Assembly (NCBI RefSeq): GCF_004010195.1
Contig: NC_057717.1
Span: 105,274,696 to 105,338,695 of the forward strand
DNA length: 64,000 nt
Reading direction: 5' to 3'
Source: Chiloscyllium plagiosum
Taxonomy: Eukaryota
The notes below the pieces were generated by a model. That model had not been told where the DNA came from. It saw only the letters and a program-made list of their open reading frames with translations, and ran no database searches. The first letter of the stretch is position 1, and each line of letters opens with the position of its first letter. Both the position numbers and the translations under genes were made by a program. This document shows positions 3,470 through 48,039 of this stretch, piece by piece.

Positions 3470-4280
3470 TTAACACACTCACGTTTACCAGTTATGCTGC
3501 AGGAGAACAGCCTTTGGAAAAAGCCTTTTTTAAAAATCGGAATCGGTAAGAAAATTGCACTTTAAAAACCCAACACCAACAACCTTGGATTAAGATTTTT
3601 GGGAATTACCCAACAAGTATCCAGGGAAAATGTCGACAAGCACAAACGAGAGGATTGTCTCCAAGGTTTAAAGAATGGACGGGCAGTTGGCTCTGAACAA
3701 ACAGTAAAAAACCGTTAGCGCCGATGGCGCGCGGGCTATCAGTTGGGAACGAGAGCTGCGCGTGCGCGGAAGCGGGCTGTCAGCTGAATGCGGGAGCAGA
3801 GCGTGCCCGAGGGAGCGGGCTGACAGTTGGGGACGGGAGGTGCGCGCGCCCGAGGGGGTGGGCTGACCGTTGGGGACATGATGTGCGCGTGCCCGAGGGA
3901 GCGGACTGGCCGTTGGGGACTGGATGTGCGCGTGGCCGAGGGAGCGGACTGGTCGTTGGAGGTGCGCGTGCCCGAGGGGGTGGGCTGACCGTTGGGGACT
4001 GGATGTGCGCGTGCCCGAGGGAGCGGGCTGACCGTTGGGGACGGGAGTGCGCGTGCCCGGGGGAGCGGGCTGACCGTTGGGGACTGGAGGTGCGCGTGCC
4101 CGAGGGAGCGGGCTGACCGTTGGGGACGGGGATGCGCGTGCCCGATGGAGCGGGCTGACAGCTGGGGACGGGAAGAGCGCGTGCGTGCGTTGGATACAAG
4201 GGCGATGAGAAGAAGCTGAGAGAGAGAAAGCGGCAATGAAAAGGTAGCCTGATCAGTTAAAGAAAGTCCTACTCGCAATG
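3470..4280 (-). promoter_or_regulatory. Candidate CpG-island promoter with putative minus-strand first-exon donor
   Basis: CpGs retained in a CpG-depleted window; NRF1-like TGCGCGTGCGC at ~3758; repeated MYB-type CCGTTR; acactcac at 3475-3482 reads AAC|GTGAGTGT on the minus strand. Confidence 0.45.
3718..4195. repeat. GC/CpG-rich minisatellite, ~43-bp unit, about 9 good and 2 degenerate units
   Basis: Unit gtgcccgagggagcgggctgaccgttggggactggatgtgcgc starts at 3803, 3846, 3889, 3932 (short unit), 3968, 4011, 4053, 4096, 4138. Confidence 0.95.
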
Positions 4281-5334: not shown

Positions 5335-6277
5335 TCCACCACTATCAACATGCTGGGAGGTTACCATTGATCCAAAACCGAACTGGACTCATCATAATTG
5401 ATGCATCAGGGTGGCTCAGTGGTTCGCATTGCTGCCTCACAGTGCCAGGGACTGGGTTCGATTCCAACTACGGGTGACTGTCTGTGTGGAGTTTGCATAT
5501 TCTCCCAGTGTCTGCATGGGTTTCCTTCGGGTGCTCCAGTTTCCTCCCACAATCCAAAGATGTGCAGGTTAGGTGAATTGGTCATACTAAATTGCCCATA
5601 ATGTTCAGGGATGTGTAGGTTAGTTGTATTAATCAGGGAAAATGCAGAGTAATAGGGTAGAGGACTGGGTCTGGATGGGTTACTCTTCAGAGGGTCGGTG
5701 TGGATTTGTTGGGCCAAATAGCCTGTTTCTACACAGTAAGGATTCTATGATTCATTCTATATAAAGTGGTTTCAAGAGCAGATAAGAGGCTAGGTATACC
5801 ACAGCTAGTAACTCACTTTCTGACACACCAAAGCCTGACACAAGGCACAAGTCAGGAGTGAGATGGAATACTGCCAACCTGCCTCGATGAGTGCAGCTCC
5901 ACAACACTCGAGAAGTTTGTCACCATCCAGGACAAAGCAGCCCACTTGATTGGCAACATATCCACAAGCATCCACTTCCTCCACCGCCGATGTTCAGTTG
6001 CAGTATTGTATGCTGAATGAAAGATTTACTGCAAAAATTTGCCAAAGATTCTTACATGGCACCTTCCAAGCCCATGACCATTTATAGCTAGAAGGACAAA
6101 TTTAGCAGATATATAGGACCATCACCACCTGGAAATTCCCCTCCAAGTACTCACCACCCCAACTCAAAAAGATAGCACCATTCCTTCACTGTCACTAGGT
6201 CAAACTCCTGAAATTGTATCCCTAAGGGTCTACATCCATTATGTGAACTGCAGTGGTTCAAGAAGGCAGCTCATTAC
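5335..6277 (+). mobile_element. L2/Crack-like (CR1-group) LINE 3' portion, interrupted by a SINE and then by an LTR; tail resumes at 9602-9688
   Basis: caagtcaggagtgagatggaatac..atccaggacaaagcagcccacttgattggc (QVRS.MEY..IQDKAAHLIG); tail gaaggcagctca|..|accaccttttcaag..aataaatgctggcc. Confidence 0.75.
5407..5752 (+). mobile_element. HE1-like tRNA-derived V-SINE (older copy)
   Basis: tRNA-like A/B boxes (gtggctcagtggtt, gggttcgattcc), V-domain gtgtggagtttgca..ccaaagatgtgcagg, CR1-like tail. Confidence 0.88.
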
Positions 6278-6401
6278 TGAAATAACTCCAGTGAAATATC
6301 CCATCACCAAGTCACCTTTTATTTACACATGGAGAGTCCTTGACACTGAACCAACTTCCTCAGAGCCAGCTCTCAGCATGAACAGACATTTAACAATCTT
6401 G

Positions 6402-7057
6402 ATTTTTTAATTTTATTAAACAGTACAAAATATAGTTAACAATAAACAGAAAGCAACAGTTCACAAAAAACAGTATATACAGGGAAAGGGCAGCAAAGCC
6501 AAACCCCAAACCCCACTGTTCAAACAGTTTTCAGGGAGATGAGGGCAAACCTCAAATCCCACTTCTATTCATCACAAAGATAACAGTCACAAACACATGC
6601 AAGACAGTGCAATCAAATGAGAAACAGTGCATAGAACACAGACCCAATGTAGTTATAAAAAAGACACCTGACCACACCATATACTGATTGGACCATCTTT
6701 GGTTAGCCTTCCTGAAGGACAGTCATTAACCTTCCTTTCTCTGGCCACCCTGCATACTGACTGGTGCTCCCCAGGTCTGCTTTCCTCAAGCTGGTCGTTG
6801 ACCACCCAGTTCCCAGTCGCCTCGCATATTGACCGGACTACCCTGGGCTACTTTCCTACAAGCTGGTTGTTGACCTTCCAGTCCCCGGCCGCCCTGTGTA
6901 CTGTCTGACCCTCCCCAGCCCACTTTCCTCCAGGTCGGATGTCAGCCATCAGCTCCTAGTCACCCCGCATACTAACCAAATCACCCCTGACCAGCTTTCC
7001 TACAGTTGGGCTGACGGCCTTCCAGTACCCGGCCGCCCGCATATTGACTGACCTTTT
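6402..7057 (-). mobile_element. Non-autonomous polyA-tailed element (type A) with internal degenerate repeats
   Basis: T-rich tail at left; core cagggagatgagggcaaacctcaaatccca shared with 7868-7897; no credible ORF. Confidence 0.6.
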
Positions 7058-7105
7058 AACATCATTGTTTATTTTATTTTTTTTTCTTTTAATGCTGTGT
7101 GATCA

Positions 7106-7730
7106 GACACTCTTGTTTATATTATTTAACCCCCACACTACCGCCTAACTGCGGTAGTGCTTATTTTTTCCCCAGAACCCATGTTGTGTATGTGCAGGTG
7201 TGAAACACAGTGAGAGACACAAAGTGCACGAATCTTTATTCAATTTCCACCACCAGGAAGATAGGAAAACACCCAAGTGGCCAGTGACAATCACTGCCCT
7301 TCACATGAAAGGGCAATACTGTGTGATCAAAACAGTGAAGGGGAGGGTAGGGACTAAATCAAAATAGANNNNNNNNNNNNNNNNNNNNNNNNNNNNNNNN
7401 NNNNNNNNNNNNNNNNNNNNNNNNNNNNNNNNCCAGGCCTAGGAGCAGACCCACGAGGAGGTCTTCAGACCTGCCCTCCTTCCTCCGTACCGGGTGCCCA
7501 AAGATCAGGAGCGTGGGACTGAAGTGCAGCCAAAAGCAGCGGAGGAGGTTTTTGAGAAAATCAAAAAGGGAGTGCAAACGCCCACACCCAATATACACGT
7601 GGTCCACGGACTCCACAGCACCACAGAACAAGCAGTTGGGCTAGGAGTCCGTGAACCACCGCAATCTGCGGTTGCAGGGGACTGCTGCGTGCACACCCTC
7701 CACCCCAGATCCCTGAGAGAAAGGGACATC
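7106..7730 (-). mobile_element. Tx1-like (L1 clade) LINE 3' end with ORF2 C-terminal Cys/His knuckle
   Basis: LRDLGWRV..CLFCGAVESVDHVYIGCGRLHSLFDFLKNLL..FSPTLLIFG..LLLGL; CpG-rich, so likely young. Confidence 0.85.
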
Positions 7731-7734
7731 CTTG

Positions 7735-9272
7735 TTTTTTTTTATTTTATTAAGCAAATTACAAACAGTTTACAAAAAACATTTACAGCTGTACACAAGA
7801 GCCAGCAATTTTACAAGGGAGAGGAGCAGCAAAGCTAGGCCCCAAACCCTACCATTCAACCATTTTACAGGGAGATGAGGACAAACCTCAAATCCCAGTT
7901 CCACATATGACAAGACAGTGACAATGACATTTATACATTAGACAATCCTGTTACATACAAAAGTGCAGACAATACAGACCCAGCAAGCCCCCGCCCCTCC
8001 CACCTTCCGACCACTCTAAGGCAGCCTGCCCCTACCCACCTTCCGGTTCTCGGTCCACCCCATGCCCCTTCCAGTTCTCGGTCCACCCTGGCACACCTTT
8101 CGGCCACCTCTAGGACAGCCCATCCCCTTCCCTGGGACGACAGCGAATCTCCAAGTTATTTTTGTTAATCAGGACCTCCTGATTGGGGTCTTCAAGCCCA
8201 GGCCAATCAGGGACCTTGTAGCACACAAATCCCCCCACCCTCCCCAGGGGACTGGGTCAGCTCCTCTTGTAGCTTTTCCTGTGACGTTTCCACCCCAGCT
8301 CCGGTCCCTCTGATGCGGACTCTGACACGGCCTGTACCGGACTGTAGTTCCTCTCCTTGTATCCGGAGCATCTCGAGAATTTTCTCCTCTTCCAGCAGTA
8401 ATGGTATCGAGGCTGCATCCATCTTAGACCCTGAGGTTTCCTCGACACCAGCCAGAGGGGAGAGCCCATGGTTTCTGACAGGCTATCTGGTTGTTGACAG
8501 GGGCCTAGTACGTTTTGCTCCTGCCCTGTTTGTGAGGGAACAGCTTTCAGGTGATCCACGTGTTGGTTCAGGACTGCCTCACTTTCCCCAAACTTTGTAA
8601 GTCACGGGACCTGACCTCACGGCAACCTCACCTCGTACCCATACAGAGGTGTTGCCATGGTTCTGGCACCAAACGTCATCCCCTCAATGAAATGGTCTCC
8701 CTCACTTCGAGGAGGCATGTGGCTGGCATTGGTGATCCTGCTGCTGTTTCACCCCAACAGCCCTCCCCCAGTTTGGGAAATATCAGGTTTAACCTGGGGC
8801 AGTGTCTTCTCCCCATCACCAACTCTGCTGGAACAATCCTGTCGTTGCGTTTGGGCTGGGCCCAGAATCGATCAGGAAATGGGACAGTTTGGTATCAAGT
8901 GGCACTGTAGGCTGCTGCTTTAATCCTGCCTTCAACATTTGGAACACTTTCCACCAGACCATTGGATGATGGTTGGCATGGAGTTGTCCTGATGAGGAAA
9001 ATGCCGTTTTCCCACAGAATGAGTGTATTCCCTGAGGTCAATGATGCTCCACTCTCTATGACTGATACTTCCTGGACTCTGTGTATCGTGAATGATGCTC
9101 ACAGCTTCTCCATCATTCTCATCCCTGAGTTTGCTGAATAAACTTTCTGCGCATCCAACCACTTAGTTCCTGGTCATTGTCAATGCCCATTGTGCCCATG
9201 GAAGGACCTGCATAATCAATGTGTAACCGAGCCATTCCCACAATGATGGGAGCTCAGCTGGTGGTAATTTTT
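7735..9272 (-). mobile_element. Chimeric unit: decayed Gypsy integrase (about 9265-8550), PPT, LTR remnant, type-A polyA tail
   Basis: My frameshifted minus-strand translation: RLHIDYAGPSMG..KWLD..ENGIFLIRTTPCQPSSNGLVE..LKAGLKQQ..LSHFL..PAELVMGRR..GDDVWCQNHG..SGPVTYKV..HVDHLKA; purine tract (cccccaccctcccc on +) at 8230-8245; LTR-like ctgattgg..ccaatcaggga at 8145-8227. Confidence 0.75.
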
Positions 9273-9279
9273 ATCCTTG

Positions 9280-9494
9280 GTACCCTGCGGCGCCCACCTC
9301 TCCCTGAACAACCCCAGGGTTTTGGTCGACACCGCGTGCTCCTTCTCCAAGGATACCCGGGCCCTAACGTAACCGCGGAAGAGGGGCAGGCAGTCGGCCT
9401 TAACGACCCCCTCCACGGCCCGCTGCCTGGACCTGTTGATGGCCAGTTTGGCCAGGCCCAGGAGCAGACCCACGAGGAGGTCTTCAGACCTGCC
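9280..9494 (-). mobile_element. Tx1-like ORF2 C-terminal fragment, same family as 7106-7730
   Basis: GRSEDLLVGLLLGLAKLAINRSRQRAVEG..LFRERWAPQG; overlap matches 7433-7474. Confidence 0.85.
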
Positions 9495-9734
9495 AACATC
9501 CTTGTTTATATCTATCAGCCAGGGCTCTCTGATTGGACTGGGTTTACAACCCCAATCAGGGAACTCCAATGGGTCCACCTAGCTGACCTCATTACACTAC
9601 AACGACCACCTTTTCAAGACCAACCAGGGATGGTCAATAAATGCTGGCCTAGTCAGCAATGCCCATGTCCCACATGAATAAATAAGCTAAAATATGGAAT
9701 ATTCACTTAGAACTGGTTGCAACACCAATTTCAT

Positions 9735-26995: not shown

Positions 26996-29900
26996 TCTTC
27001 ATTCCCTGGAATAGGACTTGAACATACAAATATCTGAAAGATATCTGAAATCTGACAGAAAACTGTATTCTCTTCATTTCTAAATTCTGCTTTCTTAAAA
27101 CAAAAATGGACAACATTGCTGGAGTCATAAAATGGATGACGTAATCATATTTCCAGAAGCTTCTGAACCCCTACATTGTATAGACATTCTAGCAAAATCT
27201 GAAATAAGAGACCTGACGTCCAGCCAGCTCTGGATAAAAGAGCCATTATGCTGAAATCAGCACTTATGCTTTTGCAGTTACTTCCATGTCAGAATTAGAA
27301 TTCTAATAGAGGAGGTAAATCCACCTTGTTAGGGTAATGACCTTCCAGTTAGGTCACTGAGAAGGCCTGTCAGCATCTGAAGTCTGTGTCTTTGATACAT
27401 GACTGAAATTAGAGCTAGCTGAACTGCTTAAATCTTTTCATACATCTGTGGAATTTGGGCATCATTGGCTGGCCAACATTTATTGCCTGTCCCTAGTTGT
27501 CCTTGAGAAGGTGGTGATGAGCTGCATTCTTCAACCACTGCAGTCCATGTATACAATTTGAGATTCAAAGTTAGTTGCTGTTTCACATCCAGAGGGACAG
27601 CAGGACTCCAGACTGAATTGGTAGCCTGCCTTAGACTTCTGTCTTTGTCTCCAAGTTGCTAACTGAAAAGAGGCCTGCAAAAAGGAAACCTAATGGGTTC
27701 AGCTCACTGAGGAGATTACTGTAGGACACTGATCTCCAAGAAGTTATCACTCATGTGTATTAATTCTTAATATCTCTGAATTCACCAAAATTTGTAGTTT
27801 ATAACCCACCTCCTCTCCTGTCCTGTCTTCCTTACTTTATAGTGTTCATAGTGTGTAAGACTAGTGTAGTGAAGCAATTCCTCTGTGTTTGAATGTTTTG
27901 TTAATAAACCCAACCATTCATCTCATCTTAAAGGTCTTTTTGCTGTCAGTTTATTGCAAAATTGGAATCTGAAACCAACATCTGGGGGCCACATACCAAC
28001 TGAAGCCAAGAACTTAGATGATAACCTGATCCTAGCCTAATCAACATTGATATCATAGAGTCGCAGAATTGTTACAGTGCTGAAATAAAAAACCCAGGTC
28101 AGCCCATCATGTCACCCTTTGAACTACCTCAGTAAAGGACAGCAGTAAAAAGGGAAAGGAGTAAATCAAACAACATCTCGTTGTCCTGGGCTTAAAGGAG
28201 GAAAACCAATCATAATTTAAATTTTCACCCTTTGTCCATGAGACCATCCTTTGACTTGGACTGCATTCAATTTGATTCATTTATTCAATTAACCACTACT
28301 TACCCATTTATGCCCACTTAAGGTTCAAGTGAATTTGAATGAAATTGAAAGGATATTTGCGGGCAACTTGCTGTTGACAAAATAGATACAGCTTCAGGTA
28401 CAATATAAGTTCAAATTCTGAATTGCTCCAATGAAGAAAACTCTCGCATGTTAAATAAGGAGTAATTTGATTTTTCTGCCATACTGATGAATCTTTAGCT
28501 GCCTCCTGGCCACATACCAACTGAAGCCAAGTAGTTAGATGATAAACTGATCCCAGCTTAACCATTATTGATGTCACAGAATCACAGAAATTACATTACC
28601 AAAAAATTGCCACAGCCCAACGTATCACCATCCGTTCTCTGAATGAGCAACTCAGCAGGTCTGGCAGCATCTGTGAAAAGAAGTCAGAATCAACGTCCCA
28701 AAATGTTAACCCGATTTCTCTCCACAGATGCTGCCAGGCCTGTTGAACTTTTCTAGCAATTTCTATTTTTGTCTCTGATTATTATTTCTTTCCTGAGTGA
28801 GTGTTTCTAGAATTTTTTCTCACTCATTGAGGTTAAACTTGAGGTTAAACATTGGGTTTATAATTGCAGGCTTACCTTTACATGCTTTTCTGACAAGAGT
28901 TTAAAATTTGCAATTCTCCTGTTCTCTGGCACCGTCCCTAACTTTGAAGAAGACTGAAAAATTATGGTCAGTACCTTCACAATTTCCATTCCCACATCTC
29001 TCTGTATCCTGGGTTGCATCTCATCCAGTGCTAATATCTTAGCGACTTTAAGTACAGACAGCCTATCTATTACCTCTTGCTTTTCAATTTTAAACTTGGT
29101 AGTGTCTGAATTACCTCCTATTTTTCCATAGCCTGTATAATATCTCCTTCTCTGGTAAAGACAGATGCAAAGAAGTAATTTATTATCTCACATGTGCTCT
29201 CTGCTTCCATGTGTAAATCTCCCTTTTTGATCCTCAATCTCTTGAGCATCCTTCTACTATTTAACTTTCCTACCAGCAGTTCACAATGTTAGTACATCAG
29301 GAGTCTATTCAGTTCAAAGGGGATATGCTAGTATGAACTCTACATATATCTACTGTAATCCCATTTCCCTTCTCTTTACCTTTAAATATTTTTCCAATAT
29401 AGTTTATTTTAGAACATGTTGTGGAAAATTGCCCTCCTTTTTTCCAGATTACAAAGTGACTCAATTTCAAAAGTACACCATTAGTTACAAAATGTTTGGG
29501 GGCATCCTAAGAATATGAAAGAAATTTTATAATTTATTTTTCTTTTTAAATCCTGTGACTCGACTTCATTAGCTCCTATGATATTATGTTCCACATTCTA
29601 ATAAATGCAAGAAAAATTTTCTAATTTTTACTTTTGTGATTTAATATTGTCATAGAGTAATAGAGATGTGCACCTGATTTATTCATTCATTGCTTAAAAG
29701 AAATAACTTCACTAATGTTACAAATCTTTTCATAACATTGAATGATTCCTTTAGCTTCTTCCTTAATCATCTCTGCTTAGTGCATACATACCTAGCGTAT
29801 TGAATCTCTTATCCTTCAAATTACAAATCACTTCAACATCTTTTCTTTCACAGTGTGTCAAAATCTGTACAAATTGCTGCTGTTTTAGTTTAACTAAAGT

Positions 29901-38274: not shown

Positions 38275-41200
38275 TATTATGGACCAGGCTAGATTCGCAC
38301 AAAATATTTCAAGAAAGTAGCCCAGACCCTAACTCTGCTAGTTATTTTAAGCAGGTGTACAGTGGATATTCCAAGAGGGATGCAGCTGACCCAACCAGTT
38401 AGTTTTAAACAAAACAGAATTTACTTGCAAGATCACCGAATGAAACACAAACAAAAAAGAACAGAATAGAGAATAACTCAACCTATCTGACAACCCAACA
38501 GATTATCCCAACTTAATGATGCTATTCCAAATACTTGCACCAATCCCCACAAACACTCCTTGGCACAAAGGTAAAATCAAACACAGGAGCTTACAGTAGA
38601 GAAGAAATAGCAGCATGGAACACCTTCTTCCATGTAAGCTGTTTCTTGAACCAGCAGCCTCAAACTGACTGTCTGCTTTCAGTGAACAGCCAGACTGCTA
38701 AAACCAAACCAGAGAAAAGCTGAGCTGGGAGAACTGGCCACTCTCCATTTTTTTTTTAAACTTGAAAGCATTCTCAAGTAGATCAACATTTTGGATTCTG
38801 TGTCTTTACAACCTCCTGAAAAGAAACTAAGGAGAACCTAACCTTGTTAAAGGAGCAGCACCTTCACACCATCCCCCTTAAAAACAATAAACCATCAATA
38901 TTCTAAGATGACCTCATTAAAAAAAACCCTTAATCTTAAACTGCTAGTACTCTACAACACACCTATACATTACATTGACAATAATCATGCAAGCATGCAC
39001 TACTACATTTTGTTTCAGTCTGTTTTACTCCCACCACCAAATGCCTCCATTCCTCATTCAAGTCTCAACAATATATTGGCAATCATATTTTCTCGTCCTG
39101 CTCCATGCACAATTTTCAAAATGAAAGGCTGTAACAACAAGCTTATCTAAACAGCCTGGCATTTTTGTCCTTAAATTTCTCCACAAACTTCAATGGGTCA
39201 TGATCAGTGTGTATGATTGTCTCAGATACATTACTAGTAACATAAACATTGAAATGTTGTAACACCAACACCAAGCTCAGAGCCTCCTTCTCAACTGTCG
39301 AATGCTTCTGCTAATGAATGTTCAATTTCCTGAAGAAATACCCAATAGGTCTTTTTATCTTCTCATCGTGTTCTTGCAAGAGCACAGCGCTGACACCCAC
39401 ATCACTTGCGTTGATAGCCACCTTGAATGGCTTTGCATAATTAGGTGTGTTAATACAGGGGCAGAGGTTAACACAGCTTTCAGGCTGTCAAATGCCTTTT
39501 GACAGTCTGCTGTCCACTGAAACCTCTTGCCTTTCTTTAGCAATTCAGTGAGTGGAGCAGCCGTACTGCTAAAATTTGGTATGAATTTTTGATAAAATCC
39601 GCTCAATCCAAGGAATCGAAATACTGCTCTTTTTGTTGATGGTATAGGAAACTCCCCAATTACCTTTTTTTTTGCATTCTGTGCAGCCGTTTGTCCATGT
39701 CCAATAACTTGTCCTAGGAAGGTGACTTGGGCTTTGGCAAATTCACTTTTAGCCAGGTTTAGCCAGGTTTGTCTTCCGAAGTCGATCGAACAAGTCTGAT
39801 AAATGTTGCAAATGTTCCTTCCATGTGTGACTAAAAATCACCAGGTCATCGATATATACGACACAATTGGGAATCTGAAAATGACCTTATTAGTTAGTCT
39901 CTGAAATGCGGTTGGTGCATTTTTCATACCAAATGACATGACTTTAAACTGATACAGTCCATTTGGCATTACAAAAAGGTACCTGCCAGTATCCTCTGAG
40001 CAAGTCCAACTTAGAAATATAAGTTCCCTATCCCACTTTTTCAGCACAGTCTTCCAAATGTGGAATCAGGTGTGCATCAATCTTTGTAACTGCATTGATT
40101 TTACGATAGTCCACACATAACCATTGGGTTTCATCTGGTTTTGGCACCATTACTATGGGTGAGTTCCAGTCACTGTAATTCACTTTGATTATGGCGTCTT
40201 GGAGCATGAGTTCAATCTCCTTTTGAACCCATGCCACTTTAGAGGGTTTTACATATAATGATGTTGTTTAATCGGAACAGTATCTCCTGTGTCTACATCA
40301 TGCATAATTAGGTAAATACTGCCCAGCTTATTTCCACATATCTCCCCATGTGATAGTAATAACTCTTTAAGGTCATTTCTATTTTTCTCTGGAAGCTAAC
40401 TCAATAATTTATCCCAATTTTTGACAACTTCCTCATTGTCCAATTTAGTTTGAGGAATATTCAATTCAGAATCCTCTGATCTTGGTTCTTCACTCTGTGT
40501 TGTAACCGATAACACAGTCTCCTTTGGCTTTCCTATCCTGTCAAAATACCTTTTAAGCATATTCCCATGACACAATCTGAGATTCATTTCTGGCTGGAGT
40601 CTTTATCAAATAGTTAATGGGTCACTCAATTTCCTTTTGTCTTTATAAAGTCCACTAAACCTTGCTTTTAAAGGTTCACCTATCCCTGCAAGTAACACTA
40701 ACACCATACCTCTGAAAGCAAAATTGTGAGTTTTTGGTTTCTTGTTTGCTTCCTGTTTCATTGTCTGTTGTCATTCTAGCCAACTCCCCCGCTCTATCTA
40801 ATCATTTCTGAAAATTTGGCACATAATATAAATAAGTCGTCTCTGAATCATGACTTATTAATTTCTCCTTTATCAATTTTAGCTGTCTTCTCACTTCATG
40901 CCCCAAAAACTAATTCAAATGGACTGAATTTGGTCGATTCATTTGGTGCATCTCTGATCATAAAATTTACAAGCAGAATTCCCTTATCCCAATCATCTGG
41001 ATAGTCGTGACCATAAGTTGTCAACATGGTCTTTAATGTTGATGCCACCTTTCTAGTGCTCCCAGCGACTCTGGATGGTACGCAGTAGGTTTGAATTGTT
41101 TTATTCCTAAGCTGTCCATATGTTCCTTGAATAATTTCGATGTGTAGTTTGACCCTTGATCTTATTGTATCTCATGAAAAATTTAAGTAATTCCTCTATA

Positions 41201-44200
41201 ATCCTTTTAGCTGTAATATTGCGTAATGGAATGGTATCTAGAAATCTCGTGGGCACATCCATTATTGTTAACAAATCCTGATTCTCACTTTTTGTTTTAG
41301 GTGTGGATCCTACAAAATCAATTAAGATGCTTGTAAAAGGTTCCTCAAATGCAGGAATAGGTATTAAAGGTACAGGTTTTATTACTGCCTGTGGTTTTCC
41401 AATTACCTGACATGTATGACACGTCTGGCAAAATTCAACTACATCCAGGCCAGTAAAAATGATTTTGTATTTTACGTTGAGTTTTTTTCTCACTCCTAAA
41501 TGACTCTCTAATGGTAGTTTGTGTGCTACCCGCAACTGGCAGTATGACTTGATGAACATCTGCCTAAATATGTGATGGTCTCCATTTCCTCATTAAGACA
41601 TAATTTCTAAGATTGTAACATTCAGGGATACACTCAGATTCTTTTCCTGTGTATGTCTTTTGATATAACTGCTTTAAATTTTTATCTTTCTGCTGTAACT
41701 CAGTTAATTTAACTGAGCTAAAAATGTCTGCTTTGTCATCTCTCTGTTTCTGGCTTGTCTCAACCGTCTGATCAAGCAGGGTCTCTGCTAATTTTACTTC
41801 AACTTTCTTACGTGTACTCTTTGATCTCTCCTGTTCCAACTGGTGATTTTGTGACCTCATTACCATTGTCAGGAAAAATCCCAGGATGTGTGTCCTGCAA
41901 TAGTTCAGTTGCCTGAGTTTCCACTGGCATTTCAACCACAGTAGGTAGCATTCCTGCCTGTGAACCAGCTATATTGTTAGCAAGGACAAATTGTATTCCT
42001 GGAGCAGAGAGCTTGTCCAGTACTCCTACCATGACTTCCCCACTCTTCACTGGACACTCTAACCTCACTTTACATAATTGAACGCTTCTTGTCTCACCAT
42101 GAATTTCCATTACTCGCATCTTTTCTGGCAATAGTTCTTCAGAGGTACATATCTCCTCATCTTTCAACATCAAAGATAGACAGTATCCTGTATCTCTCAT
42201 ATGGTAACTTTTTTACCTGCTGCTCCTGGTCTATGCAAGTAAGTTTTACCTTCACAGGTACATGGTTTAAGAAAATCTGGCACTTCCTCCTTAACCAACA
42301 TCCGACCAGGTTGTACAATCTAATGTAGCTTTCTAGCCTCCACTGTGCTTTCTGTTCCCACTTCAAGAAAATTCACTGGCTTATCCTGTTTTCCAACCTC
42401 AAGCTTCCCAGTGCTTTTCTTAAGCCACCAACACTGTGATTTCATGTGGCCTGCTTTATTGCAGTGAAAACATTGGAGCTTTTTAACTTCTCTTTCCCCT
42501 TCAAGGGTTTCCTTTTTACCCTGTGGTAATTTATCCTTATGATCTTCACCAAGATTTACCTTTCCCTTTCCATGTGAGGATTTCTCTTTTCCTCAATTTC
42601 TATCCCTCACAGATTGAAATTGATTTTGAAAGCCAAACTTTCAAATGGATCAACTCATAATCATCAGCCATTTCAGCTGCTCATCTTGCCATTTTAACTG
42701 CCTGCTCTTCTACATGAGTTCTCACTACTTCAGGAAGTGAATTTTTGAACTCCTCCAAAATAATCGTCCCTCTATGAGTGTCATAGGTTTACTCTAATTT
42801 TAATGCCCTTATCCTCCTGTCAAAATTATTTTGTTTGATCCTTTCAAACTCAATGTTGATTTGACCAGGCTCCCTCCTTAGATTCCTGACACGTTGTCTG
42901 TTGGCTTTTGGTACATGTTCATATACCTTAAGATGGCTTTCTTCACCTCCTCATATGCCTCAGATACCTTCTCTGATAGGGATGCAATTACCTCACTAGC
43001 TCTACCTACATGTTTTGTTTGGATCAACAAGACCCATGTGGTCACTGGCCACCACATTTGTTTCGCCACCTTTTCAAATTAGATGAAAAAGGCTTCCACA
43101 TCCTTCTAATCAAATTTAGGCAAGGCTTGAATATATTTAAATAGTTTCTTACCAGGCCTTTGGCTACCTTGGGTTTACTCATCCTCACTCTCTTCCTCAC
43201 TAAGCTTACCTACCTTTTAAGCTGACTTTCCCGTCTAAGTGACAATTTCTGAAGTTCAAAGTCCCTCTCTTTCTTACTTTACTCATTCTCCTTTTTTCTC
43301 TCCTGCTTTTAATCATAATTCAAACAGTTTCATTTCTGTTGCCCTTTCCTTGTATTTTGCCTCTAATTCAAGCTGCTTCATTTACCAATTGAATTTTCAC
43401 CATCTCTTAAGATTCTGACCACATTTCCAGCAAATTTAACTGCTGAGCTATTGCTGTAATTACCTCTTCTTTCCTCACAGAAGGAGGCATCTCCAGCGCC
43501 AACGTGTCTACTAATTCCAGTAGCTTGGCCTTAATCACCTTTTGCAAGTCACTTCTTCCACCCCCAGAAAACTCTTGGTGACTAAAAGAGCCATTACTAT
43601 CCCAAGCACTGTTTAAACCAACCAAATTCAACACCTGTAACAAAAGACACTATCACCTACCCCTTGCTGCTTTCGGGTACAGCAACCCTAACCCCAAATT
43701 GGAACTGTAGAACAAACCCTGCCAAGAGCTCCTAATCTATTATGGACTAGGCCAAACCCCCCCCTCAAAACATTTCAAGAAAGTAGCCCGGACTCTAAGT
43801 TTGCTAGTTGTCCTAAGTAGGTGTACAGTGGATGTTCCAGGAGGGATGAGTTAGCCCAACCACTTAGTTTTAAACAAAACAGAATTTACTTGCAAGACTA
43901 CCAAATGAAACACAAACAAAAGAGTACAGAATAGAGAACAACATAATCTATCTGAAAACTCAACAGATTAACCCAACCTAATGATGCTGTTCCAAATACT
44001 TGCAACAATATCCATAAACACTCCTTGGCACAAAAGGTAAAATTAAGCACAGGGGCTTACAGGAAATAGAGAGATGGCAGTATGGAACACCTTCTTCCAT
44101 GTAAGCTGTTTCTTGGGCCAGCAGCTTCAAACTGACTGACTGCTTTCAGTGAACAGCCAGACTGCTAAAACCAAACCAGAGAAAAGCTGAGCTGGGAGAA

Positions 44201-45786: not shown

Positions 45787-46037
45787 TAGAATCATCATGT
45801 TTGGAAGCAGCCCATTTGTTCCAATGAGTCCACATTGAACCTCTGAAGAGCATCCCATCCAAGCCATGCCTCCTCATTCTCCCAACCCTATCCCTGTAAC
45901 CCCGCATTTCCCATGACTAATCCACCTAGCTTGTACATCTTTGGACTTTGGGAATAAAGTGGAGCACCCAGAGGAAACCCACACAGACATGGAGAGAATG
46001 TGCAAACTCCACACAGATAGTCACCCAAGGCTGGAAT
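45787..46037 (-). mobile_element. Older HE1-like V-SINE
   Basis: ggagcacccagaggaaacccacacagacatgg..tgcaaactccacacag. Confidence 0.85.
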
Positions 46038-48039
46038 GAGGGAACCTTGACTGACAGATATAAACGAGAGTGTCAGGGATTCTATTCATTCTGAGACCTG
46101 GCTCTGAGGAAGCTGGAACATCGTAAAGGAATTTCCATGTATAAATGAAGGATAATTTGGTAATGGGATACCAGCCGATGTGGAGTTTTTTCACCCTCTA
46201 TTCTACTCAATCTGAACTGGCAGAACCATTGGCTTCCTTTACCTCTGATTACTATGTGGTGGCTTATGTCTCTTGCTGGAAATGGCCATGATTGCTCTCT
46301 AAGTCAGTGGCTACTTCAGACAGTAAGTGGTCTCAAGTATATGAATTGACAATTTCAATAGAGAGGATTGAAAAAAAGTTGAATAAAATAGTAATCATCT
46401 GAGGCATGCCCATAAACTCACATCATATGCTGATCTCTCATATATGAATAGTGGTAAATGTATTTCTGTGACTCTTTCCATGGTCTACCCACACTGTGGT
46501 TTTGCCTGAAGGAAATGTATTTCTTTCCTGTTTGGGCTCTTGGGAATTGTACAATACATGGACTGTGTATAGTTCATCTTTATTTTTAATTGATTGCGAG
46601 AGATAGGCCAGGAAATCTTGAGAATTCATTTTTCTTTAAATTGTGCAATATAAAATAAAGATAAAGTTACTGTAATAACTCAGAGAAAGACAATTGGTGG
46701 TGAGTTTAACCTGAGAGTCACCACACATAAGGAAAGGGATGAGGTTGAGAAGGCAGGAGCTTTGTGGTTAGTTCAGCTGTTCAATTCCCACGTTGGCATT
46801 ATTCTGCATCACAAACCAGCCATCCAGCCAACTGAGCTAGTTAACCCCCAATTGTGTAATGAACTCCTTCATATCAACAGGAACCACTGAATCAGGTTGA
46901 TAGACCATTGATCAATGTATCATCAAAAAGAAAACCTCTCTCCCTCCTTGCTGCAGTGGAGTGTCAGCCACATTAATGTACTCATAACCTGAAATGTGAC
47001 GATAAAGGACTAAGAAGACAGATGTTATTCCATCATCTATAACAACTGAAACAGCAACTATATAAATTGATTCAACTAAATTTAAGAGCTCACCAAATGA
47101 GGAGTAACTGCGTTTAAATCATAATTTCACAATCCAACCTGATGAACTATCCCAATAAGTGGTACATTAACAGAAAATTGGTGAGTAGCACTGATTTGAG
47201 GAAACTGACTGAATTAAAACCGTCTATCGTGTTTTCTGCCATTCTTGAATTAAACTTTGGATGTTAGTTCATGTTCAGAATGTAATGCTCCAAATCACAT
47301 TTTCTCTTTTTAAACTAACAGAAATTACTTTGAGACAATACAATCATCATCATTTATTGTGCTGAAGCATTGAAATGCAATCAATGCAATCTCCGTTGGG
47401 ATTTTAACAAGTTAATCAACCTATTAAAAGACTAACTTTTAACTCCCTGATAGCTTTGGAAGCATGGCCTCTTAAATATAATTGTAGTTGCCCATAGATT
47501 TCAAGTGTTGACTATCGTCTTGCTGTTCTGAGGACTGAGAATCACAGAAGGTCATTTCCAAAGCATAGGTCTGCAGCATGCTATTAAAAGGAAAGGACCT
47601 TTGAGAGGAAGTATGCAAGAATTACTGCAGGGAAAGGCTTGCTCTACCTACATGTTTTGTTTGGATCAACAAGACCCACATGGTCACTGAGCTCTTTTTA
47701 AAGAACATTAATTCTGGCCATTTTCTATTCCATTGGGTGGACCTAAAACACCTATTCCATGGGTACGATCCTAAAACACAGTGGTATTGGAAACCTAACT
47801 ACATTGAAGGACCACATAATTACATAATTAATACGTACCTGTCTGCTTTAAAAGGCCCATTTAAAAATAGTGGTGGTGGGGGGGCAAGTTAGATTTGTAA
47901 TTTTAGTCATACAGTTACTGCATTATTTCTAGGATGGTATAGAGTCCAAAATTAGGGCTACTTAATGTTTGTAAATAAACTGAAAACAATTTATTAAATT
48001 TGCCCATCTTTGTGAATGTTACATTTTTAATATATAGAG

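Follow-up and report, generated by a model that had tools for sequence, protein, structure and literature searches.

A dead Gypsy-type integrase and LTR-like end copied from elsewhere into a retroposon stack within a solo LTR of Chiloscyllium plagiosum

Within the 64,000-nucleotide stretch of contig NC_057717.1 of Chiloscyllium plagiosum analyzed here (hereafter the window), the minus strand reads a broken integrase of the Gypsy type, a polypurine tract (PPT), a short LTR-like piece, and the poly(A)-bearing tail of a retroposon. The locus raises the question of whether the integrase is the in-situ remnant of a provirus or a unit brought in from another locus by the machinery of a LINE. The first-pass annotation had favored the latter, picturing a read-through transcript that became a non-autonomous element copied back into LTRs of the same family. 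We find that the integrase-LTR unit is real and that it is copied in from elsewhere. The features of the stack in which it lies, all on the minus strand, are collected in Table 1.

Table 1. Layout of the retroposon stack within the host LTR, in minus-strand order
Feature	Position	Strand	Remarks
Host solo LTR, 5' half	9496..9601	-	TG start; TATA-like box and two inverted CCAAT boxes; the upstream target copy is CAAGGATGT (9504-9496)
LINE ORF2 C-terminal fragment (piece a)	9283..9494	-	212 nt; truncated at both ends; without 3' UTR or poly(A)
Broken Gypsy-type integrase	8246..9282	-	end of zinc-finger linker, core, and C-terminal region
7-nt partial target match	9273..9279	-	shares the codon register of the integrase; may be microhomology at the junction; falls short of a full target duplication
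Polypurine tract (PPT)	8230..8245	-	15/16 purines; from the sequence
Diverged LTR-like (U3-like) piece	8146..8229	-	84 nt; inner loop inverted; final base homologous to where the target copy ends
Tail A1	7735..8145	-	non-coding, 5'-truncated retroposon end (retroposon very abundant); includes poly(A) and a GC-rich repeat part
Downstream target copy CAAGGATGT	7726..7734	-	
LINE ORF2 piece b, ORF2 end, 3' UTR (tail B), and poly(A)	7068..7725	-	assembly gap 7369-7432 inside
Degenerate target copy after tail B	7067-7059	-	
Tail A2	6402..7058	-	72-nt internal periodicity; poly(A)
Degenerate target copy and host LTR, 3' half	6278..6401	-	target copy at 6401-6393; LTR half ends with CA

The frame of the stack is a single LTR of about 220 nt, with a TG start and a CA end, of which 9601-9496 and 6401-6278 are the two halves. 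The flank at 9605-9674 matches an uninterrupted copy of the host repeat elsewhere in the window (27447-27515), and the flank at 6244-6277 continues the same repeat at 27514-27547. Since these outer flanks adjoin in the uninterrupted repeat (27447-27547), everything between them is one LTR insertion with later additions. The 5-nt duplication of the host LTR has decayed, with three of its five letters agreeing as read from the alignment. Its 3' half matches a second LTR copy at 46081-46170 at 80% over 90 nt, and this second copy (46035-46170) is partial, with an empty target site. Across 45950-46170 this other family member lies on the plus strand with its target empty and the site diverged, and a SINE-like piece (45906-46037) replaces its 5' part. 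The assembly gap in piece b starts 43 nt inside the portion shared with piece a, where an assembler facing two nearby copies would be expected to break off.

Four of 24 public runs were compared with positions 7601-9700 at 85% likeness, namely X1 and X5 (contig sets of organism A from different studies), X9 (organism B, 64% of the run), and the RNA run X21; the contig tables list 24 pieces beside 31373 others. Over the edge of the host LTR, a contig of organism A in X1 covers 9509-9656 without a difference at a depth of 6.45, which we use as the locus-unique flank. A contig of organism B (X9) covers 9507-9700 with 14 differences and 3 gap letters, and the LTR insertion thus predates the split of organisms A and B.

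Insertions into this LTR recur at one site: four target copies, two full and two degenerate, stand in the stack, and independent joints to 9503-9540 are present in X5 and X1, which together indicate a preference for a single site within the repeat. The integrase unit carries the marks of target-primed insertion at its 3' end, where the type-A tail with poly(A), correctly recognized by the first-pass annotation, runs from 8145 to 7735 (poly(A) at 7751-7735) and is followed at once by CAAGGATGT at 7734-7726. At its 5' end no full target duplication directly abuts the unit, and the integrase adjoins the LINE ORF2 fragment (piece a) that lost its tail. The annotation had placed the unit between two copies of atccttg, the upstream one being 9273-9279. 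We rejected this 7-mer as an upstream duplication: it lacks the A-run that precedes and the GT that follows the copies at 9504-9496 and 7734-7726, and it stands in codon register with the integrase linker, with a near-invariant proline column in place and mixed column scores. The full upstream copy is that at 9504-9496, past piece a, and from its sequence the 7-mer is likely better read as integrase coding that perhaps served as microhomology.

A stop-to-X frame of the integrase recovered 84 relatives at E<=0.001, and Pfam rve lay above cut-off in six of the seven relatives tested. The long relatives P0008, P0017, and P0042 carry RNase H, H2C2, and rve domains, and we take their set to be Gypsy. 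A frameshift-aware read-through with X across 9232-8542, which bridges five frameshifts (near 9168, 8948, 8832, 8765, and 8590) and three stops (9101, 8704, and 8686), scored 188 bits against a 17-relative profile; this score is optimistic, as the frames were picked against that very profile. The read-through had been proposed as a check by the annotation, which had an rve HMM in mind in place of the profile of relatives. Pfam returned 0 families for three single integrase frames, and a word-index search returned 0 of 80 candidates. The motifs from which the annotation had recognized the integrase (LHIDYAGP, PSSNGLVE, and SGPVTYKV) are all present, and its remark that the ORF track misses the core is true of the list of ORFs of at least 100 aa. 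Homology to the rve core and the C-terminal region, followed by a PPT, identifies a Ty3/Gypsy integrase remnant, and the gene is dead. One description of the coding sequence, that it keeps many CpGs, failed: CpG observed/expected is 0.29 in the core as against 0.28 in the window, TpG/CpA is up at 1.51, and the core holds 14 CpGs where 13.6 are expected (P=0.49). We therefore rejected CpG retention as a sign of youth, the core being at background level.

The polypurine tract claimed to follow the integrase is indeed there (8245-8230, 15/16 purines), and so is the diverged LTR start said to end near the target site at about 8145: its last base, 8146, is equivalent to the base where the target copy ends. 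The LTR piece (8229-8146) is identical to the host LTR half in 50 of 69 aligned columns, a value reached by 0/300 shuffles, and its end aligned with the end of the host target copy agrees at 19/33 positions (18/5000 shuffles). The piece has no TG start, and its upstream part is shorter than that of the host LTR. Moreover, the loop enclosed by the two inverted CCAAT boxes runs opposite to its counterpart in the host LTR, with 11/15 letters agreeing as the reverse complement (4/5000 shuffles); its agreement in forward orientation is reached by 4761/5000 shuffles. This loop of 15-16 nt, at about 8200-8187 in the LTR piece and about 9551-9537 in the host LTR, resembles a small hairpin inversion in the promoter region. 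An inversion of the whole LTR piece was considered and rejected, the arm after the second CCAAT box fitting in forward orientation (18 and 0 of 5000 shuffles). Given the 50/69 identity and the inverted loop, two near-identical LTRs around an internal region, as in an intact or in-situ provirus, are not found here.

Near-identical counterparts of the unit are present in organism A. X1 holds gap-free contigs over 8161-8396 (depth 55.4, 3 differences), 8591-8814 (87.4, 1), and 8947-9146 (63.5, 5), and X5 over 8146-8396 (52.6, 1), 8591-8743 (107.9, 0), and 8947-9212 (115.2, 6). These six listed contigs differ from the window at 9/660 letters in X1 (1.4%) and 7/670 in X5 (1.0%), and part of this ~1% would be species divergence should organism A be a close relative and not the same species. 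The six cover two of the five frameshifts (near 9168 and 8765) and all three stops, and the frameshifts near 8948, 8832, and 8590 lie outside them. The integrase contigs stand at 8.6-13.6 times the locus-unique flank in X1, the flank value of 6.45 being close to the median of 6.6 of 13 hand-picked single-contig values (from which 24.3, 44.6, and the three integrase contigs were left out), and at 3.2-5.1 times on the most cautious baseline, 17.3. The ratio in X5 is 2.2-4.9 to the median (23.5) of eight unique-looking junctions, that is, eight of nine joint rows with the row at 105.5 left out, the rows being biased to high depth. Several copies sharing internal lesions, as in a retroposon family, are thus present at about 2-14 times single-locus depth, contig depth being a rough proxy and no copy number. 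The window copy has private letters at 8383, 9022, and 9024, found in no listed contig.

Depth does not fall towards the 5' end and even rises in X5 (52.6, 107.9, 115.2), which argues against a ladder of 5' truncations. Were the sequences past the joint single-locus, the depth of the shared part would be about 76 in X1 and 62 in X5. The parent family is present in organism B as well, with a contig over 8318-8537 (depth 157.9, 9 differences, 1 gap); in the 64% of the run covered, X9 has no depth over 8161-8230 or at 9022-9024. Along the integrase, at six listed sites between 8538 and 8991, the window has G where the family contigs have T (plus strand), and, among the listed sites of the integrase region, there are 10-12 G>T sites per contig run as against 5-6 T>G, a nominal excess.

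The depth over 8161-8230 consists of one contig each in X1 and X5, and the other family contigs lose their match within 8231-8300 in the contig depth table. The 319-nt contig of X5 (depth 52.6) follows the window over 8146-8396 with one difference and is joined at 8146 to the LINE ORF2 at the base equivalent to 9453, by 68 letters. The X1 contig departs at 8161, 15 nt from 8146, into 93 unplaced letters. Hence, the module is repeated, with a different 3' partner in the window, in X5, and apparently in X1, and two of these joints share the target-equivalent base. Among the listed contigs of X1, X5, and X9, which drop rare variants, none bridges 8146/8145 into tail A, and no listed piece bridges 9283/9282 between piece a and the integrase; because assemblers drop rare branches, a single copy with tail A would be invisible. 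The test proposed by the annotation was a set of near-identical copies sharing frameshifts, junction, and poly(A) with variable 5' ends. The shared integrase breaks were recovered; a shared junction with tail A and a 5'-truncation ladder were not seen among the contigs listed.

Both partners at this site are abundant retroposons. Tail A1 and the tail at 6403-6646 are 72% alike across 256 columns, the summed contig depth of tail A is 1e4-6e5, and contigs of the tail-A family run past 8145 with other letters. Tail A alone is also joined to the LTR target (7851 to 9503, and 7897 to 9503). The former joint, of a 5'-truncated tail A to the LTR target, has a depth of 105.5 in X5, about 4-5 times the other junctions, and none is listed in X1 or X9; such LTR-plus-tail junctions may themselves be amplified in some individuals. 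The two tail-A copies in the window have a 3' end of about 250 nt in common and differ upstream (6715-7060 and 7985-8145), where the one has a 72-nt periodicity and the other a weak one of 28 nt, which suggests subfamilies with different internal repeats.

Piece a of the LINE has 17 homologues at 66-80% identity, shark gene models among them, and piece b matches LINE homologues by tblastn, with zf-RVT at E=0.029, below cut-off. The LINE relatives carry RVT_1, endonuclease, and zf-RVT matches; in one of them, P0088, the RVT_1 and zf-RVT matches lie below cut-off. Family reads depart from the window sequence, as loose ends, at 9283 and 9494. We take this partner LINE to be Tx1, a putative label given that the stack holds only C-terminal pieces of its ORF2. 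One of 17 gene models, P0093, passes from the LINE end to the 3' half of the LTR (E=4e-5), and in the whale-shark model P0097 the C-terminus of this integrase is continued by the same LINE end. Both are predictions that may include predicted introns, and show neighborhood, not mobilization; P0097 indicates, at the level of a gene model, that this integrase is followed by LINE ends elsewhere in sharks as well.

Three observations support the view that the unit did not arise in situ: it ends at a target-equivalent base, it is followed by poly(A) and a target copy, and it has near-identical multi-depth counterparts with the same breaks. Here the interpretation of the annotation is supported; the other part of it, a family united by a tail-A junction with variable 5' ends, finds no support among the listed contigs. 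The reading that we tentatively favor, as a possible and at present the best account, is a single LINE-type (target-primed) insertion, or one of a few, that carried upstream sequence by 5' transduction from a low-copy dead Gypsy group. The stack shows that the old ~220-nt solo LTR is a landing site for an abundant LINE and for tail-A retroposons, which have piled up there. Elsewhere, the contig depths roughly indicate a few dead Gypsy copies, nearly identical to one another, that have these integrase breaks and this altered LTR piece in common, and in one run the LTR piece is joined at 8146 to a 5'-truncated LINE end, so that its target is used too. A copy or allele of this group may then have taken a tail-A insertion at the same cut, and a read-through RNA comprising integrase, PPT, LTR piece, tail A, and poly(A) would have been reverse-transcribed into the stack by the LTR-targeting LINE. 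Its 5' end would have been joined inside the neighboring piece a, which would have lost its 3' UTR and poly(A) in an insertion-associated deletion; deletions at LINE insertion sites are known. The integrase would accordingly be a dead passenger of the insertion. The poly(A) and host-type target copy, in a stack flanked on both sides by sequence collinear with an uninterrupted repeat, speak for this account, as do the target-equivalent end of the LTR piece, the X5 joint, the near-identical contigs with shared breaks, and gene model P0097. Against it, none of the listed contigs contains the donor junction of LTR piece and tail A or the joint of piece a and integrase at 9283, the X1 contig departs at 8161 instead of 8146, an extra deletion is needed at the 5' joint, and the depth lacks a fall towards the 5' end.

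The first alternative, which we consider unlikely though viable, is copying at the DNA level: a break in the stack would have been repaired from another locus, by one-sided invasion through tail-A or LINE homology with microhomology at 9283, and the multi-copy signal would stem from a 1308-bp unit (8146-9453), amplified segmentally or as a tandem in place and collapsed in this assembly. The X5 joint can be read in just this way, going back 1308 from 9453 to 8146 as a local tandem repeat does; the depth is flat or higher upstream; and a single event would account for the loss of the tail from piece a. However, the breakpoint is the target-equivalent base, which random duplication would rarely strike, X1 is without that joint though its contig has a depth of 55.4, and LINE truncations at 9303-9390 are common in other joints, making a hit inside piece a unsurprising.

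A more far-reaching possibility, which we rate as rather unlikely, is that the module is a self-renewing passenger. Ending in the LINE's own target, it would let different tails (the LINE ORF2 end, tail A, and a third, unplaced one) dock at the same base, each docking giving a new poly(A)-tailed transcript to be delivered to further LTRs.

Template jumps within one insertion, from tail-A RNA to Gypsy RNA or cut DNA with its end at the target base, and on to LINE RNA (piece a), are in our view decidedly unlikely. They would need neither a donor with the tail-A joint nor a deletion, they fit the differing continuations of the module in the window, X5, and X1, and the part of PMC4494074 consulted names them as a source of 5' extensions in Tx1-mobilized elements. 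Yet two jumps are required, one of them onto the middle of the LINE ORF2, and X21 gives no sign of a Gypsy RNA ending there. In this RNA run (about 2% of the run, poly(A) single-cell), depth is 0 over 8161-8510 and below 1 in two integrase bins; by comparison, tail A reaches 83 and the LINE piece 116. A probable 3' bias of the library makes this a weak test.

We regard as improbable an established non-autonomous family comprising integrase, PPT, LTR piece, and tail A, with a common junction and variable 5' truncation. The near-identical multi-depth copies with the same breaks are what such a family would yield, and it could be young and confined to the lineage of the assembled individual, but the listed contigs of X1, X5, and X9 show neither its junction nor a truncation ladder. 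Even less do we credit an assembly mis-join in the repeat stack. The gap at 7369-7432 does lie where piece b would repeat piece a, and neither internal joint is among the listed contigs; however, neither joint contains a gap, each lies at a base that makes biological sense, and the private letters of the window copy set it apart from a mere collapse of the common form. Finally, a provirus remnant in situ with its two LTRs struck independently, although suggested by the proviral order of LTR, integrase, PPT, and LTR-like piece, is very improbable, as its supposed LTRs agree at 50/69 with an inverted loop whereas the integrase is only ~1% from copies elsewhere, the host LTR is common to organism B where the LTR piece is without coverage (64% of the run), no remainder of an LTR follows piece a, and the target copy after tail A is of the host type.

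The 5' transduction that we favor has precedents. Kojima (2015; PMC4494074), in the part consulted, reports that Tx1-Mar, Tx1-8_Crp, and Tx1-4_AMi prefer other transposons as targets, that two of these families prefer LTR retrotransposons, and that tandem insertions sandwich the target duplication. The same part describes SINEU-2B_Crp, with a 5' extension from its target transposon Mariner-N4_AMi. As in that element, the mobilized copy here carries upstream target-derived sequence; unlike it, as far as this part of the paper describes it, the extension is not one of 42 nt defining a subfamily with a master copy but one of about 1.1 kb, with integrase and PPT, the common tail junction being absent from the listed contigs. 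The 5' transductions of SVA and SVA_F1, in the portion of PMC12593883 consulted, involve read-through RNA from an upstream start, mobilized in trans by a LINE from source elements, and the MAST2 case of SVA 5' transduction is cited in the consulted part of PMC4494074. As portrayed there, SVA uses L1 and has no fixed target repeat, whereas here the passenger contains the target and lands in the same LTR family. In the HERV-W processed pseudogenes (the consulted portion of PMC5537654), RNA of an LTR element is copied by LINE machinery with poly(A) and target duplication; as described in that portion, those end in U3-R with their own poly(A) site, in contrast to the LTR piece here, which stops at the LINE cut and has a foreign retroposon tail. 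Passenger capture by 5' transduction is already known, and the present case departs from these examples in how long the passenger is, in its inclusion of an integrase, and in a tail that changes at a single base. A literature search over the titles and abstract starts listed, with Repbase Reports and most subscription papers outside its scope, found no description of a Gypsy-integrase/LINE-tail chimera in sharks.

As it stands, the locus is one dead insert produced by an already-described mechanism. It nevertheless offers a small, checkable example of how an LTR-targeting LINE can make passengers of provirus ends, one route to composites such as SVA. Should the tails indeed be swapped at the target-equivalent base, the module would be an LTR-derived non-autonomous element whose copy number still differs between individuals, and would display the first steps in the birth of a composite retroposon with a built-in target.

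At least 119 metagenome-contig loci from a pattern scan were rejected as chance matches, 0/119 matching 6200-9700 at E<1e-3, and a search of viral contigs gave two weak 22-residue matches. Elsewhere in the window, the minus strand at 39355-42212 carries pol fragments of another LTR retrotransposon, from a different family (RT/RNase H-like, E=9e-5; H2C2, E=0.005), and 3771-4184 is a GC-rich 43-nt tandem repeat of about 10 copies.
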